Shown here one piece after another: positions 50,895 through 61,237 of a stretch of 64,000 nucleotides of DNA. The stretch lies in the IMG/VR virus record IMGVR_UViG_3300009081_000001, positions 1 to 64,000 of that record; one strand, written 5' to 3'. The stretch is from a virus. The translations under genes were made by a program, and so were the position numbers. The notes below the pieces were generated by a model, which did no database searches, was not told where the DNA came from, and was given only the letters and a program-made list of their open reading frames with translations. Each line of letters opens with the position of its first letter. Position 1 is the first letter of the stretch.

Positions 50895-52379
50895 ATGAGT
50901 AACGGCATCAAGGAACCGGGAACAGAATATGTGGTAGATGAGGACAAGCTACTCAAGATTAGCCACTATGACGAGCGCGACCTTGCGGCATTGCAAGCTA
51001 TCGGCAACTATGATTCTTTTCAGATCCTCGAAGCAGTCAATGAAGACTCCATTGCTTTCCGTAAGTGGTTTGTGGATATCACTGGCGACCTGGCAGCGGG
51101 CGTTATGCTCTCGCAGATCCACTACTGGCATGGCATCAGCAAACGGGATGGCAAGCCAAGGCTAAAGGTTGAGAAGGAAGGACACCTATGGCTATGCAAG
51201 TCAGACAATGAGTGGTGGAAAGAAGCAAGGTTGACTGAGAAGCAAGCCCGCCGGGCGCGAGAGATTCTAGAGAAGCAAGGGCTCATCATCTGCAAGCTGT
51301 GGCGATTCAGTAATGTCCCACGTATCCACATGAGAATCAACAAGCCAGTGTTTATGTCGGCGCTGAACGCTGCAATGTGTGAGAAATCCCGATTTGCCCT
51401 ACAGGGCAAATCAGACTTGCCGCAGGGGGCAAATCAGACTTGCCCTACAGGGCAAAACATTAACAGAGACTACTTAACAGAGACTACCATAGAAGATCCC
51501 CCCACGCCTGACGGCGATGGGGTACCCTTAAAGGAGGGACAGAATGGACAATCTGATCGGGTTTATGGAATCACAGCTAGAACTCAACTTGCAACTAGTC
51601 GAGGGAATGGCCGGCCTGAGTCGTCGCTTGCGTTCCCTGGAGAAGCAGATGGCGAAGAAGGAGGCAGAGAACCTACGATTGGCCCTCAAGCTGGTGGACC
51701 TGGAGAAGATGGTGAAGCTGCTGACAGAAGCGGGGGGCAGCATGGCGGTGGAGCTGGTAGTACTGGAGAGCAAGATAGACCAGGCGCGGAAGGCGGCGGA
51801 GGCATACTACGACGACGTGCTGAATATCACGGCGAACCTGGGAGTAGACCTGGCAACGGCGGAGCTGCAACTAGGCAGGCTAATGCTCAAGGTAGCAGAC
51901 CACCTGCAGGACAAGTAGGGGGCAACTCCGTAATCCACAATCTGCTTAGTGGCACACGAACAGAGGGAGACGACGAAGCCCGCCCCAAGTGGCAGATACC
52001 AGAGTCACCGGAGCAAGAGGCATTTCTGTCTGTGTGTAGTGCCAAGTGGTTCAAGCCTAAGCAGAAGAGTAACATCAAGGGGATACTCGCCGCCTTACGA
52101 GCCGGGGACATGGCCGGGGATGACGTGTACCAGAAGTGTGCCGAGGCTATAGCAGACAAGGGGAAACTGGAGAGTCCTTTGCCCCCCTTGCCCCGGTCCT
52201 GGTACGAGTGGCGAGAGGGACACGCCAAGGGCCACAGGTGGAGCGTGGATGGATTCGTTAATGCTCTGCTGGATAGGGACCGGCTGATGGAGCATTGCCA
52301 GTATCACTTAAAGACGAAGGGAGTAGTAACAAACGACTATGGCGCTGATCCTTGGTTAGAGAACCTACCGGGAGGATAG
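50895..52379 (+). CDS. Replication initiator (replisome organiser type)
   Basis: N-terminal winged helix (AGVMLSQIHYW...LTEKQARRAREILEKQGLI); internal iterons; directly upstream of DnaB. Confidence 0.75.
   Translation: MSNGIKEPGTEYVVDEDKLLKISHYDERDLAALQAIGNYDSFQILEAVNEDSIAFRKWFVDITGDLAAGVMLSQIHYWHGISKRDGKPRLKVEKEGHLWLCKSDNEWWKEARLTEKQARRAREILEKQGLIICKLWRFSNVPRIHMRINKPVFMSALNAAMCEKSRFALQGKSDLPQGANQTCPTGQNINRDYLTETTIEDPPTPDGDGVPLKEGQNGQSDRVYGITARTQLATSRGNGRPESSLAFPGEADGEEGGREPTIGPQAGGPGEDGEAADRSGGQHGGGAGSTGEQDRPGAEGGGGILRRRAEYHGEPGSRPGNGGAATRQANAQGSRPPAGQVGGNSVIHNLLSGTRTEGDDEARPKWQIPESPEQEAFLSVCSAKWFKPKQKSNIKGILAALRAGDMAGDDVYQKCAEAIADKGKLESPLPPLPRSWYEWREGHAKGHRWSVDGFVNALLDRDRLMEHCQYHLKTKGVVTNDYGADPWLENLPGG
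51391..51456. repeat. Three 23-bp-period palindromic iterons, probable replication origin
   Basis: TTGCCCTACAGGGCAAA / TTGCCGCAGGGGGCAAA / TTGCCCTACAGGGCAAA separated by TCAGAC. Confidence 0.75.
51544..51918 (+). CDS. Coiled-coil protein nested in another frame of the initiator gene
   Basis: AAGGAGGG RBS + ATG; natural amphipathic helical composition while the host frame is Gly-rich here. Confidence 0.65.
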   Translation: MDNLIGFMESQLELNLQLVEGMAGLSRRLRSLEKQMAKKEAENLRLALKLVDLEKMVKLLTEAGGSMAVELVVLESKIDQARKAAEAYYDDVLNITANLGVDLATAELQLGRLMLKVADHLQDK

Positions 52380-52383
52380 ACGT

Positions 52384-53853
52384 ATGACCAACGAAGTACT
52401 AATCAACTGCGAGGCCGAAGAGAGCGTGCTTGGGGCAATCCTGATTGACCGCGATGCAATCACCATCATTGCCACCATTCTGGAACCGTCAGACTTTGGG
52501 AAGAAGGAACATGGGATCATCTACGCGGCTATGCTCGACCTCTACAAGAGCAACACCGCGATTGATGTTGTGACCCTGGACGATGCGCTTGAGGGTAAGA
52601 ACCTCAAGCCGGTGGCGCGGTTCATCGACAGTGTGCCCACCTCTCTTCATGCAGAACATCATGCAAACATCGTCAAGCGTATGTCGGTAAGGCGTAGCCT
52701 GCACGATGCAGCACAGAAGATTGCGATGCTGGCACACAATGACAGCGAAGAGGATACCCACGGCCTACTCGCCAATGCCGAGAAGATCATCACCGAAGTA
52801 AGCCAGAAGACACCTACCCTTGTTACCACGGTCAAGAGCGAGACGGCACGGATATTTGACGGCATCTTTGACCCCAAGGAGATAGTGGGGGATCGTGTCT
52901 TTACCGGACTGCCCGGCCTGGACAGTGCTACCATCGGCATAGAGAACAGCCGCTTTTGGGTAGGGGCAGCGATTCCAGGCACCGGCAAGAGCGCAATGAC
53001 TGTCAACATCGTGCGTGGTGTAGCCAAGGTGAACAGGGACGTGGTGATCCTGTACTTCCATCCCGAGCAGAGCGCCGGGGAGATCACGAGTCTTCTACTC
53101 TCTTGTGGGACACCCAAGCCGGAGACGCCGAATCAGTACATTCCCCCGTTCCGTATCAAGGCATTGCAGATGAGTCAGGATCAGAAGGATGAGTACCTGA
53201 ACGCTGCAGCGTTCTTGCAGACCTCTACCGTGGGGCGCTATGCCAACGGCAAGGCAGAAGAGATGGCAAAGCGCAAGGAAGGGTATCTGAGCCAGGGATT
53301 GCAAGACTGGGAGATTGCAACACTCTCTGCAAGCCGCGCCGAGATAGAAGATAAGACCATCATCCTCAACGACCCGTCGGGCGAGACGATCCACAAGATC
53401 CGTGCCACCGTGCGCCGTGTCCGTGCCAGGATGCACCCTGATACGTTTCTGCTTGTCATCTTCGATGGGATGCACCTGATCCCCGGCAACGGAGAGGGCA
53501 GCAGACTGGCGGAGCTAATGACTGTCACCAGGACGTTCAAGCAGATGGCACAAAAGGACGTTAGCCCCGGCGCAGTCATGGTCAACCACCAGTTGGTCAA
53601 AGCGTTCTTCAACGAGAAGCAGAACAGGGTGTACCACAATGGTCTCTTGAGGGACAGTGGCACCATTGCCCAGGACGCCGATGTGATCTACTTCTTGGAC
53701 AGGCCCAGTGTATGGGAGAATGGCAAGACGGTAGGGACGTGGGATAACATGGATATGATCTGCACCAAGAATAGGCAGACCAGCACCGAGTTCCGTTCAT
53801 TCTTCCGTATGCACACGTCCACTATGAGGGTGGAAGGAAGGGACGTGATCTAA
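52384..53853 (+). CDS. dnaB: Replicative DNA helicase, DnaB-like
   Basis: EAEESVLGAILID N-domain; Walker A AIPGTGKS; LRDSGTIAQDADVI; KNRQ. Confidence 0.9.
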   Translation: MTNEVLINCEAEESVLGAILIDRDAITIIATILEPSDFGKKEHGIIYAAMLDLYKSNTAIDVVTLDDALEGKNLKPVARFIDSVPTSLHAEHHANIVKRMSVRRSLHDAAQKIAMLAHNDSEEDTHGLLANAEKIITEVSQKTPTLVTTVKSETARIFDGIFDPKEIVGDRVFTGLPGLDSATIGIENSRFWVGAAIPGTGKSAMTVNIVRGVAKVNRDVVILYFHPEQSAGEITSLLLSCGTPKPETPNQYIPPFRIKALQMSQDQKDEYLNAAAFLQTSTVGRYANGKAEEMAKRKEGYLSQGLQDWEIATLSASRAEIEDKTIILNDPSGETIHKIRATVRRVRARMHPDTFLLVIFDGMHLIPGNGEGSRLAELMTVTRTFKQMAQKDVSPGAVMVNHQLVKAFFNEKQNRVYHNGLLRDSGTIAQDADVIYFLDRPSVWENGKTVGTWDNMDMICTKNRQTSTEFRSFFRMHTSTMRVEGRDVI

Positions 53854-57564: not shown

Positions 57565-57593
57565 TTGACAAGGATTCTGAACTATAGTATACT
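57565..57593 (+). promoter_or_regulatory. Dedicated promoter of the RAMP-like operon
   Basis: TTGACA-17-TATACT, then AGGAGG RBS before 57628. Confidence 0.8.
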
Positions 57594-57627: not shown

Positions 57628-58248
57628 ATGGTACAAAAGAAATCGGAAGTTGTGGAAGTACCGGCACTCAGAATTGAGTTACTGTCAGTTACCTTGGTAG
57701 GGGATTCCCCGCTCATCTGTCACCGCTTCTCCAAGAAGGCGAAAAACCAAATCCTTGCCAGTCAGGGTAAGCGCGTGAAGACACGCGAGGCAAGGGATCC
57801 AGAGGGGGAAGGTATGGACGCTGCCTATACTCTGCCCGTCCCTGGAGCCTATGGGTTCCCCGCATCTGCTTTCAAGCAGGCTGCTGTCAGGGCGGCAAAG
57901 CAAGTGCCCGGCATGACAATGGTGGATACACAGGGATACTTCTTTATCAAGGCGGCAACGCCCGATGATGCAGAGCAGCTTGTCGGCCCCCTGCGCTACA
58001 GCGAAATGCAGATCAACGAGGATGCAGTTCGTCTCGCTGGCCCTGGTAGGCCGGTAGACCTGCGCTTTCGCCCCTACTTCCTTAACTGGGAAGTTGACCT
58101 TGAGATCGAGTACAATGCCAGCCTTGTCAGCCCAGAGCAGATCGTCTTTCTTCTGGACTCGGCAGGGTTTGGCGTGGGTGTGGGTGAGTGGAGGCCAGAG
58201 AAGGGCGGCAACTATGGTCGCTTCCACGTAAAGAAAGGGAATGAATAA
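57628..58248 (+). CDS. RAMP-fold (Cas7/Cas5/Cas6-superfamily-like) RNA-binding protein, stand-alone
   Basis: N-terminal strand VTLVGDSPLICH, YGFPASAFKQA (cf. RAMP IPGSSLKG), C-terminal Gly-rich loop AGFGVGVGEWRPEKGGNYGRF. Confidence 0.75.
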   Translation: MVQKKSEVVEVPALRIELLSVTLVGDSPLICHRFSKKAKNQILASQGKRVKTREARDPEGEGMDAAYTLPVPGAYGFPASAFKQAAVRAAKQVPGMTMVDTQGYFFIKAATPDDAEQLVGPLRYSEMQINEDAVRLAGPGRPVDLRFRPYFLNWEVDLEIEYNASLVSPEQIVFLLDSAGFGVGVGEWRPEKGGNYGRFHVKKGNE

Positions 58249-58250
58249 CT

Positions 58251-58808
58251 ATGTGGATGCCCGTCGAAGAGAGTGGTCGCTGTATCTACAGGTGCAAACC
58301 TGGCAGTCCTGTACCAGATGCACGAGCGCAAGAGATTGGAGAGTACATTGCTGACCTGGAAGAGAACAGCGGCATTACTCCTCATATCTTGCTCCAGGAT
58401 GCTACTAACCCCGAGTCCAAGCTACACGAGTTCTTTGAGTGGGACGATAAGAAGGCTGGCTACCACTGGCGTCTGCAGCAGGCGCGGCAGATCATCAATC
58501 ACTTTGAGATCGTCGTGGTCAATACCCGCGAGGAAGAAGAGACAAGGGTACGCGCCTGGCACAGTATCAACATCCGGGTTCAACCCCCCAAAGGACAGGA
58601 GTTTCACACGGAGACTGACAACGGGGAGCCCGAAATGCAACGGGTGTACGTCAACGCTATTCAGGCCCTCTCAGTAGAAGACACACGCAAGCAGGTTGTA
58701 GCCAACGCCCTCAGAGAATTGAACGGCTGGCGTCATCGCTATCAGACATACGACGAGTTCAATCCTATCTTCACCGGGATTGAGCAGCTTAGTCTTGCCG
58801 AGGCATAG
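58251..58808 (+). CDS. Accessory protein coupled to the RAMP-like gene
   Basis: Starts 2 nt after the RAMP stop; helical ITP..LL..A..PESKLHEFFEWDD..A...RLQQARQII. Confidence 0.7.
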   Translation: MWMPVEESGRCIYRCKPGSPVPDARAQEIGEYIADLEENSGITPHILLQDATNPESKLHEFFEWDDKKAGYHWRLQQARQIINHFEIVVVNTREEEETRVRAWHSINIRVQPPKGQEFHTETDNGEPEMQRVYVNAIQALSVEDTRKQVVANALRELNGWRHRYQTYDEFNPIFTGIEQLSLAEA

Positions 58809-59179
58809 GCAGGCAAGGCGAGGCGTAGCGGGGCTTGTTGAGGCTTGGTGGGGTTAGGCACGGCGCGGTGTGGCAAGGCAGTCTCGGCTAGGCGTGGCGT
58901 GGCCTGGCCCGGCCCGGCGCGGTGTGGCAGGCAAGGTATGGCAAGGCGGTGCAGGGTGTGACAAGGCCAGGCGAGGCTAGGCAGGCGAGGACCGGCGGGG
59001 CTTGTCACGGTGGGGCACGGCACGGCGGGGCAGGCAAGGTATGTCATGGCGGGGCAGGCGTGGCGATGTGTGGCGAGGCGAGGCGAGGCGCGGCGCGGCT
59101 GGGCGAGGTTCGGCGGGCGCGGCCTGGATTGGCGAGGCGGGGCACGTTCTGGCTAGGCTTGGTGGGGCAGGCAAGGTTT
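58808..59179 (+). ncRNA. GGY-NN pentamer array (68 pentamers, 8 GGCR tetramer punctuators), candidate guide RNA precursor
   Basis: 57 of 68 pentamers start with GGC/GGT and the other 11 differ by one base; the last two bases vary freely; begins at the stop codon of the accessory gene. Confidence 0.85.
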
Positions 59180-59221
59180 CATTTCCGTCGGAAATAGAAA
59201 ACTACAAGAAGGAGAAAGAGA

Positions 59222-59791
59222 ATGCCTAAGCAGTATACGGTTTACTGGACCAATTACTGGACCAACGAGTACATGATACCTCTCAGCTTTGCTGCAGAGT
59301 CAATGAGATACGACCCCGAGCAAAAAGCCTACGAGTTCAAGACAGATGTTGGGGGGTTCCTCATCCCCAAGCAGCAAGTCCTCTATGTAGAGTGCGGCAA
59401 GCACGTCGGCCCGGCGCAAGCCTTGATAGAAGCAGGAAAGAGGGCCGCTCAGAAGAGGGGCAAGAACATAGCCATGACAGAGATTGATATAGACGAACTG
59501 CTGTCTACCCTGCCACCGGGTGAGGATGATGAATGGGACGTAGCGTTCACGGAGGATGATATAAACGAGGCCAAGCGTAACAGGCTCTTTGGCCCTACAA
59601 CAACTCAGAAGAGAGAGCTGGTAATGGCGGCACTCGCGATCCGAGATGCAATCGAGGAATGGGGCTGTGTAAAAGCTCTTGCTTGCGATGACGATGAAAG
59701 CACATGGCGAGACTCCCTACCGGAAACCATAATGGCTGCCTATGATAAACTAGACGCTGCACTCTCTCCACTCTATGGCGACCCACTGTAG
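59222..59791 (+). CDS. Hypothetical protein
   Basis: AAGGAG RBS; 189 aa; flanked on both sides by the 15-bp palindrome. Confidence 0.6.
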   Translation: MPKQYTVYWTNYWTNEYMIPLSFAAESMRYDPEQKAYEFKTDVGGFLIPKQQVLYVECGKHVGPAQALIEAGKRAAQKRGKNIAMTEIDIDELLSTLPPGEDDEWDVAFTEDDINEAKRNRLFGPTTTQKRELVMAALAIRDAIEEWGCVKALACDDDESTWRDSLPETIMAAYDKLDAALSPLYGDPL

Positions 59792-59818: not shown

Positions 59819-61237
59819 ATGAGAGCGGGAATCATGGCGAGGGTGAGCACCGAGGAGCAGCTTGCGGGCTATTCTATCGGCGCTCAGGTAGATGCAATGC
59901 TCAAGTTCTGCGAGGAACAGGGCTGGCAGGTCATGGAAAGGTACATCGAAGAGGGTGTATCTGGCACAACGTCTAACCGGCCCGAGCTACAGAGAGCTTT
60001 GCGCGATGCAGAAGCGGGGAAACTAGATGTGCTGCTTACCCACCAGCTTGACCGCTTTTACCGAAACCTGCGCCTACAGATCGAGACGCTTGGTAAGCTA
60101 GGAGAGATGGGAGTTGGGTATCTATCTATCACCGAGAGGATTGACTACTCAACTCCCACCGGTATGCTATTCATGCAGATGTTGGGCGCGTTCAACGAGT
60201 ACTATTCCAGCAATCTGGCACGCGAGGTTAGGAAGGGCAAGCAGGGTAGAGCAGAGAGTGGTTTGACCAATGCAACGTTCTTGCCCCACGGTTACAAGAG
60301 GGTAGAGAAGGAAGCCGTCATAGAACCAGTAAGGGCAGAGACAATCCATTACATCTTCAAGCTATATGCAACAGGGCTTTACTCCTATCGGGCAATTGCA
60401 GATAGGCTCAATGCAGAAGGACACCCCGCAAGCAGTAGGAGTAAGGGAAAGTGGATCTGGCAAGCAGTGAGGGGTATCATTGAGAATCCCTACTACATCG
60501 GTCTTATCAGGCACAACGAAAAGATGTATCAGGGCAAGCACGAACCTATCATCGAGCGCAAGTTGTGGGATATGGCGCAACGAGTGAGGGAACAACGTGC
60601 AACATCGTACACTCATTCGAGGACAAAGGAAACTTTCATCTTGCGCGGCACCGGCCACTGTCTTGCCTGTGGTAGTAGGCTGTATGCAGAGAGTCATGGG
60701 AAGAATAGGTACTACCGTTGCAGTGGAAACCAAAAGGGGGTAAGTTGCACAGTTCCATTTGCAAGGGTGGAAAAGGTAGATGCAAGTTTGGCAGAGCTTG
60801 TATCTCACGCGCAACTACCAGGAAACTGGCGTGAAGAGATTGCAAGAGCTATGCAAGGGCCAGTTTCCAACGATGGCAACAAGCGCAAGTACTTGCAAGA
60901 GAAGTTGCGCCGGTTGCGTGAGCTGTACCTTGAGGATGACTTTACCAAGGAGGAGTACAATCAAAGGAAACGTGAATTGGAAAGTGAGATTGCAAGGCTA
61001 CAACCACCAGGGAAACCAGACGACATTGACGCCGAGTTGATTGCAAACCTGAGTAAACTGTGGGAGGGAGCTGAGTTGCAGCAACGCACCGACCTTGCAA
61101 ACATCCTCTTTCGTAGTGTAGAGGTAGATATGCAAGAGGAAAGGGTAGTTTCCTTTGAGTCGTACCCCGAACATGCAATGTTGTTCCGGCTTATCTTTGA
61201 GGAAAGGGAAGGGAAGTTCTACAATGGACAGGCATAA
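59819..61237 (+). CDS. Large serine recombinase (integrase)
   Basis: ARVST catalytic Ser, DRFYR, recombinase domain, zinc ribbon CLACG..YYRC..C, coiled coil. Confidence 0.95.
   Translation: MRAGIMARVSTEEQLAGYSIGAQVDAMLKFCEEQGWQVMERYIEEGVSGTTSNRPELQRALRDAEAGKLDVLLTHQLDRFYRNLRLQIETLGKLGEMGVGYLSITERIDYSTPTGMLFMQMLGAFNEYYSSNLAREVRKGKQGRAESGLTNATFLPHGYKRVEKEAVIEPVRAETIHYIFKLYATGLYSYRAIADRLNAEGHPASSRSKGKWIWQAVRGIIENPYYIGLIRHNEKMYQGKHEPIIERKLWDMAQRVREQRATSYTHSRTKETFILRGTGHCLACGSRLYAESHGKNRYYRCSGNQKGVSCTVPFARVEKVDASLAELVSHAQLPGNWREEIARAMQGPVSNDGNKRKYLQEKLRRLRELYLEDDFTKEEYNQRKRELESEIARLQPPGKPDDIDAELIANLSKLWEGAELQQRTDLANILFRSVEVDMQEERVVSFESYPEHAMLFRLIFEEREGKFYNGQA

Follow-up and report, generated by a model that had tools for sequence, protein, structure and literature searches.

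The closest described relatives of the locus investigated here are the VIPR (Viral Interference Programmable Repeat) systems, which were introduced in three bioRxiv preprints of 2026 (10.64898/2026.04.26.720920, 10.64898/2026.04.26.720927, 10.64898/2026.10.15.759431). As laid out in two of them (10.64898/2026.04.26.720920, 10.64898/2026.04.26.720927), VIPR is a CRISPR-like silencer of DNA that is built from Vipr, a minimal RAMP protein mostly encoded by phages, and from a guide termed vrRNA, which consists of 9–16 YNNGG repeats with a conserved GGY and a hypervariable NN. Each repeat is bound by one Vipr protomer, which conceals the GGY and exposes the NN, and the exposed pairs interact with DNA by a '1-nt skip rule', in which every third base is skipped. 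A pangenome search, competitive binding, repression of GFP and cryo-EM provided the evidence for this rule, which was demonstrated both in vitro and in vivo. The guides target the coding sequences of rival elements in frame, with the skipped base placed on the wobble position, which the authors argue defeats escape by synonymous mutation (10.64898/2026.04.26.720920, 10.64898/2026.04.26.720927). The variable positions are described as free of protein constraint and fully reprogrammable and working vrRNAs as often internally degenerate, and the published target search used a cut-off of at least 80% match. In the protein of Escherichia phage SUSP1, the GGY anchor is read by H17, R138, D177, W178 and R179 (PDB 36pp; 10.64898/2026.04.26.720920, 10.64898/2026.04.26.720927). 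The preprints also describe accessory genes (vap1-6) and system types I-VII, and fig. S18 of 10.64898/2026.04.26.720920 introduces 'staggered vrRNA arrays', where vrRNAs arise from 1-nt overlapping positions.

Anatomy and register of the array

In the window, by which we denote the whole stretch of 64,000 nucleotides analysed in this study, a direct reading of positions 58808..59179 on the plus strand finds pentamers that combine a conserved GGC, sometimes GGT, with two variable bases. We conclude with high confidence that this region (58808-59179) is a staggered vrRNA array of a phage-encoded VIPR system. The first base of the array is also the third base of the stop codon that ends a 185-aa accessory gene, and on its other side the array is bounded by the start of a 189-aa gene. 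Its parts are as follows:

58808..59179, plus strand: the array, very probably a staggered vrRNA array, composed of seven guide segments (S1-S7) and two trailing units, about 68 GGY-NN pentamers in total
58812-58876, plus strand: guide segment S1, 13 NN units
58881-58925, plus strand: guide segment S2, 9 NN units
58930-58979, plus strand: guide segment S3, 10 NN units
58984-59028, plus strand: guide segment S4, 9 NN units
59033-59052, plus strand: guide segment S5, 4 NN units
59057-59111, plus strand: guide segment S6, 11 NN units
59116-59165, plus strand: guide segment S7, 10 NN units

The segments are divided by 4-nt steps, with GGCA occurring five times from S1 to S6, followed by GGCG at 59112, and each of these steps moves the 5-nt register by one base. 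Additional GGCA units are found ahead of S1 (58808) and past S7 (59166). Among the distances between successive GGC triplets (n=52), 30 measure 5 nt, 11 measure 10 nt, three measure 15 nt and six are 4-nt steps. About 77% of the anchors conform to GGY (44 GGC and 7 GGT), and the rest of the array contains the degenerate versions AGC, GTT, TGC, GAC, GGA, GTC and TGT. Since about one quarter of the anchors deviates in this way, some of the units may be decayed. Two segments differ in further respects: S5 with its four units is below the published range of 9–16 repeats per guide, and S6 holds tandem copies of GGCGA (three) and GGCGC (two).

The seven strings of variable pairs listed in the initial annotation were reproduced letter for letter by direct reading and parsing. 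The same holds for the 32 pairs that start with G, whereas the listed pairs amount to 66 instead of the 68 stated, a total that had included the two trailing units. In the register used in that annotation CG is absent among the pairs, as had been claimed; an automatic parser, which sets some of the steps one unit off, yields a single CG at one boundary. A search of the window and of the complete virus genome (87,059 bp, an IMG/VR record that carries direct terminal repeats) found no second 5-nt periodic trinucleotide array, and Rfam holds no family that matches the array region. A sub-threshold Rfam match to the archaeal C/D-box sRNA sR14 is located inside the accessory gene (58709-58778, minus strand; 19.8 bits against a gathering threshold of 38, E=0.027), and we take this snoRNA-like match as chance. 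Several other readings of the array were considered and dropped, namely G-quadruplex-forming DNA, a binding site for a TRAP-like ring protein, and iterons or a centromere; a coding reading was rejected as the ORFs that run across the array are stop-poor artefacts of the GGC-rich repeat.

The described architecture resembles the staggered arrays described in 10.64898/2026.04.26.720920 (fig. S18), where tail-less guides abut with a one-base register shift, as provided here by the GGCA and GGCG steps. We infer that the array in the window corresponds to those of fig. S18, including the location of the processing sites. In contrast, the guides of SUSP1 carry a conserved, roughly pseudoknot-like tail in place of the 4-nt steps. 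Judged by its homology with the system of SUSP1, the array would be transcribed and subsequently cut at the 4-nt GGCA steps into guides of about 20–65 nt. Each pentamer would then be bound by one Vipr protomer, burying its GGY anchor and presenting the two variable bases for base-pairing with double-stranded DNA, with every third base skipped, and the resulting filament is predicted to silence transcription of a competing mobile element. Expression of the array and its processing at the steps are thus proposed by analogy, and the pairing rule and the silencing mechanism would apply to this locus as described in the VIPR literature.

The vipr gene, its accessory gene and their neighbourhood

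The array is the last element in a gene order that proceeds from a promoter to vipr, an accessory gene and the array. This part of the genome contains the following features:

50895-53853, plus strand: replication module, in which a DnaD/O-like initiator (494 aa) precedes a DnaB-type helicase (489 aa)
57565..57593, plus strand: putative sigma-70-type promoter ahead of vipr, near consensus (TTGACA-17-TATACT, 11/12 in a consensus scan)
57628..58248, plus strand: vipr gene, assigned by homology, 206-aa Vipr protein (PHROG 4652, 'unknown function'), two genes upstream of the array
58251..58808, plus strand: accessory gene in the vap position, 185 aa (PHROG 15946, 'unknown function')
59222-59791, plus strand: 189-aa gene directly 3' of the array, no family match in Pfam, PHROGs or PADLOC
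59819-61237, plus strand: 472-aa large serine recombinase with Resolvase, Recombinase and Zn_ribbon_recom domains

The relationship of the 206-aa protein to SUSP1 Vipr is already apparent from its single sequence, which matches PDB entry 36pp_D ('SUSP1 Vipr protein') in a phmmer search with E=1.1e-6, although this pairwise alignment is confined to ~60 residues at the C-terminus. When 47 array-linked homologs were combined into a profile, the match extended to full length (E=3.5e-35), with profile positions 18-201 aligning with residues 1-188 of the 36pp_D chain. The proteins are thus homologous throughout but distant, and it required the family profile to reveal the full-length match. The G-loop motif AGxxxGxGxxRP...GRF is kept across the alignment of the Vipr family, as are, in the alignment to SUSP1 Vipr, the contacts of the thumb and the beta-sheet, where H32 stands for H17, R148 for R138 and E187-W188-R189 for D177-W178-R179, with a change from Asp to Glu at the first position of this triplet. 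An AF2 model of the protein shows high confidence (pLDDT 92.3, pTM 0.87), and its best Foldseek matches are Csm3/Cas7 chains of type III CRISPR systems (E ~3e-6, probability 1.0). As judged from its sequence, the gene at 57628-58248 encodes a Vipr protein of the minimal RAMP/Cas7-like kind, which by analogy is predicted to bind the GGY anchors of the guide RNA.

The similarity to the Cas7/Csm3 proteins of class 1 CRISPR systems comprises the RAMP fold, the binding of one protomer per guide repeat unit and a thumb that periodically interrupts base-pairing. However, the guide period of VIPR is 5 nt, with two bases paired and three buried, compared to 6 nt in Cas7/Csm3, with five bases paired and one flipped, and the system in the window contains neither a CRISPR repeat-spacer array nor other cas genes nor a second RRM domain. 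With SUSP1, whose VIPR system is of type II, the locus shares pentameric GGY-NN guides on the strand of vipr, a small accessory gene in the operon, its residence in a phage and variable pairs that resemble codon positions 1-2. Homologs of Vipr were identified in 153 phage records, which include the Felixounavirus group of SUSP1.

The accessory protein carries a conserved SPLHxxFEWDDxxAAxxxRLxQAR motif and was modelled by AF2 with a pLDDT of 88.9. No convincing fold relative emerged from searches with Foldseek (E>0.3) and VIA-align (Z<=6.3), where weak winged-helix-like rows were the sole hints, and a search of viral contigs found no close relatives of this protein. Pfam and PADLOC searches of the three small proteins of the locus did not return any match. 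Homologs of the accessory protein adjoin Vipr genes in phages of Mycobacterium and Gordonia and they are absent from SUSP1-like phages; as judged from this distribution, the locus is probably not of type II, which is the experimentally studied one.

A search for an intrinsic terminator 3' of the array found none, and a short hairpin at 59178-59197 scores no better than shuffled sequences. The presence of the serine recombinase near the array suggests that the phage is probably temperate. A megablast search with 24 kb against cultured phages returned no match. The DNA of the virus is present in one DNA run of a freshwater sediment metagenome, which probably is its source, and no RNA run holding it is listed. 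The locus thereby adds a further example from an uncultivated phage of freshwater sediment to a family that was published in 2026, and it combines a tail-less staggered array with an accessory gene from outside the experimentally studied SUSP1 clade.

Related arrays in viral contigs and cultured phages

A scan of viral contigs with a pure DNA pattern of seven consecutive GGCNN units recovers at least 120 contigs with such arrays. Among the matches listed, the arrays are 50-870 bp long and they share a grammar of runs of about 8–13 pentamers with short, locus-specific punctuation in between. For an account of the gene content, ORFs within 3.5 kb of the arrays were clustered blind, without prior assumption, at 121 loci, comprising 120 contigs among the matches listed and the window. 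This clustering returned a family of ~210 aa, corresponding to Vipr, in 80 of the 121 loci, in 78 cases on the strand of the array, and a second family of ~175 aa located between vipr and array in 26 of the 121 loci, always on the same strand (both among the matches listed). The Vipr-family gene usually ends 0–30 nt 5' of the array unless the second family intervenes (among the matches listed). The genes at 57628-58248 and 58251-58808 of the window are members of the ~210-aa and the ~175-aa family, respectively.

In the other 41 of the 121 loci, among the matches listed, no Vipr-family ORF was found within 3.5 kb of the array. Some of these are contig ends and others could be 'solo' vrRNA arrays (compare 10.64898/2026.10.15.759431).

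The punctuation between segments varies. TCAG is inserted after a pentamer in L014:1985-2363, CGCA in L044:5688-6012 and CCTCAG, with a register shift of +1, in L116:458-967, whereas L058 and L079 contain a bare 4-nt GGCA unit and the same architecture as found in the window. Most of the punctuations in the five loci compared (L014, L044, L116, L079 and L058) shift the 5-nt register by +4, which is equivalent to -1. The longest arrays, with 690–870 bp or about 140–170 pentamers, are found in L013:6321-7015, L109:8579-9266, L111:590-1458 and L054.

Arrays of GGY-NN units with GGCAGGC steps also occur in cultured phages, downstream of gene 19 in Gordonia phage ODay (MW534375.1) and upstream of gp45 in Mycobacterium phage Brocalys (NC_031262.1, gp45-gp46). 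The respective genes (ODay gene 19, Brocalys gp45 and gp46) are annotated as hypothetical proteins and the records contain no RNA feature. The Vipr proteins of both phages are 36–41% identical to that of the window. In Brocalys the same accessory family adjoins vipr, but the array is located upstream of vipr, whereas it is found downstream in the window. The hosts of ODay and Brocalys are high-GC actinobacteria, in contrast to the phage of the window, which has a GC content of 54% and originates from a freshwater sediment metagenome. With the same architecture, the cultured phages of Gordonia and Mycobacterium would offer convenient laboratory models.

Composition of the variable pairs and candidate targets

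The variable pairs were compared with composition models obtained from the dinucleotides at six codon phases and strands in 53 long ORFs of the phage. The 66 pairs are best described by sense codon positions 1-2, with a gain of +13.1 bits over the genomic background, followed by a model with +4.1 bits, whereas the others are negative, which, as evidence from composition, supports the earlier claim that the pairs look like codon starts. This behavior extends to 87 other array loci (3998 NN units, among the matches listed), where the sense codon 1-2 model is best in 56 and an antisense codon model in 21 cases, the latter being expected if either strand can be targeted. A skipped base that usually falls on the codon wobble position would let successive NN pairs spell positions one and two of consecutive codons. 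The initial annotation had proposed gapped guides whose free base on codon position 3 confers resistance to synonymous escape. This central idea is correct and it coincides with the published VIPR mechanism (10.64898/2026.04.26.720920, 10.64898/2026.04.26.720927, 10.64898/2026.10.15.759431); being already in print it is not new and opens no new question.

The more specific proposals concerning individual guides, the ParM/StbA and RuvC readings, are not supported. For their evaluation, segments were converted into NNxNNx... patterns and both strands of large sequence collections were scanned for exact matches, with no mismatch allowed. S1, which decodes to x-[DE]-V-G-[LF]-[DE]-[LF]-G-Y-T-A-V-[KN], had been assigned to the phosphate-1 motif of ParM/StbA ATPases. 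Its full pattern has no exact match in viral contigs, its units 2-12 have none in 596 Gb of prokaryote genomes and in metagenome contigs, and its units 4-13, encoding the core G-[LF]-[DE]-[LF]-G-Y-T-A-V-[KN], have none in the same 596 Gb of prokaryote genomes. Compared to the archetypal parM of R100, 14 of 26 bases match, and the common residues are V, D, G, T and K in the spacing of the R100 ParM N-terminus MLVFIDDGSTNIK. The spacing V..D.G.T..K is generic for actin-fold (ASKHA) ATPases, including FtsA, PilM, MreB, Hsp70 and sugar kinases. Since this motif occurs throughout the ASKHA superfamily, S1 does not specify ParM, and the putative ParM/StbA target is a resemblance at the level of the decoded sequence. 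A search for StbA_N or ALP_N domains in the phage's own genome found no match.

S4 decodes to [DE]-P-G-[LF]-T-G-T-T-G and had been likened to a RuvC-like DPG motif. Its full pattern has three exact matches in viral contigs, none of which resides in a RuvC-like gene. Two of them represent one and the same sequence, GDPGLTGTTGPAG, from a collagen-repeat protein (PF01391) that is found in two contigs, and the third is located inside a Mu-F-like head protein. The matches in the collagen-repeat protein suggest that S4 represents a collagen-like Gly-X-Y pattern, which fits better than the RuvC signature. S7 decodes to A-L-[LF]-[DE]-G-T-L-Y-[LF]-G, a blade motif of PQQ/BamB-type beta-propellers, and the three exact matches of its full pattern in metagenome contigs all fall within beta-propeller proteins of the PQQ_2/BamB type, at their blade motif APAL[LF]DGTLYFG. 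The full patterns of S2, S3, S6 and S7 have no exact match in viral contigs. Of the six guides searched, five thus yielded no target (S1, S2, S3 and S6, and S7 within viral contigs).

The six exact matches of S4 and S7 under the 1-nt skip all lie on the sense strand, start on codon position 1 and place the gap on position 3. This codon phase agrees with the published mechanism. The six matches, obtained with the unshuffled 1-nt-skip patterns, represent four independent sequences in abundant repeat motifs. With 18–20 specified bases and the given size of the collections, a few chance matches are expected, and those of S4 and S7 are few enough that they could be chance encounters with common repeat motifs. 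In a mismatch-tolerant test with gaps of 0–3, the other guides reach only the level of shuffled strings in the 117-kb phage that contains an S4 match, and the guides thus do not converge on one element. The same test, with shuffles, applied to 1 Mb of viral loci and to the phage's own genome returned scores at shuffle level only. Within the phage's own genome, the best match of the guides under the 1-nt rule covers 18 of 26 bases and is at shuffle level.

The decoding of S1 may nevertheless reflect a guide against the ParM/StbA-type phosphate-1 region of a competing plasmid or plasmid-prophage that is absent from the collections or slightly mismatched in them. The spacing shared with the N-terminus of R100 ParM, the in-frame targeting of rival coding sequences by published VIPR guides and the circumstance that S4 and S7 likewise decode to recognizable protein motifs point in this direction. 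We regard it as distinctly unlikely in light of the lack of exact matches in viral contigs, prokaryote genomes and metagenome contigs, the agreement with parM at 14 of 26 guide bases, where the published cut-off is at least 80%, the occurrence of the spacing throughout the actin-fold ATPase superfamily and the post hoc nature of a match selected among seven segments, two strands and many possible motifs. The array could instead be partly decayed or orphaned, with segments that are slippage products or guides whose targets have vanished, which would render their decoding uninformative. This reading is unlikely. The deviation of ~23% of the anchors from GGY would agree with it, but internal degeneracy is reported to be frequent in working vrRNAs (10.64898/2026.04.26.720920, 10.64898/2026.04.26.720927). 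The tandem units of S6, which are typical of slippage, and the shortness of S5 are offset by an intact vipr gene with preserved key residues, a strong predicted promoter and a pair composition that remains codon-like, and the lack of viral matches for five of six patterns was seen in an exact-only search, which misses targets with one mismatch.

The codon-like appearance of the pairs, with its G-rich first and G-poor second base, might also be imposed by the RNA-protein filament or by the composition of the strand rather than by coding targets. The entire plus strand of the window shows positive GC and AT skew, and position N4 is a purine in 67% of the 3998 NN units among the matches listed, which could reflect stacking preferences. 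The description of the pairs as hypervariable and reprogrammable (10.64898/2026.04.26.720920, 10.64898/2026.04.26.720927), the preference for the antisense codon model in 21 of 87 loci among the matches listed, and exact matches that are in frame make this explanation improbable. Finally, it is exceedingly improbable that the repeats act as DNA, serving as binding sites for a protein in the manner of iterons, a centromere or a packaging site, instead of guide RNA. An intergenic location near the replication module and the serine recombinase, and a strict periodicity that could phase a DNA-binding protein, would be compatible with such a role; however, the tight association with a Vipr homolog, which is strand-specific and seen at 80 of 121 loci (among the matches listed), the full-length homology to a protein whose structure was solved in complex with such RNA and a grammar of conserved anchor and variable pair identical to that of published vrRNAs all argue for a staggered vrRNA array.

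Within a vrRNA array, guides of the clade represented in the window might be directed against short conserved protein motifs rather than against one particular rival. Such motifs may include the ASKHA phosphate-1 loop, the Gly-X-Y repeat of collagen and the blade of beta-propellers. We consider this proposal as improbable as a compositional origin of the codon-like pairs. If it was true, a single guide that skips the wobble base could silence all members of a gene family, even in competitors or hosts that have diverged from one another.

A separate observation concerns the collagen-repeat protein itself. In L125:4005-9866 and in L127, two viral contigs that measure 78 kb and 117 kb, respectively, a phage protein of at least 1954 aa is for the most part composed of Gly-X-Y repeats of the collagen type, nine stretches of which match PF01391, and it is identical in both contigs, which originate from different samples.
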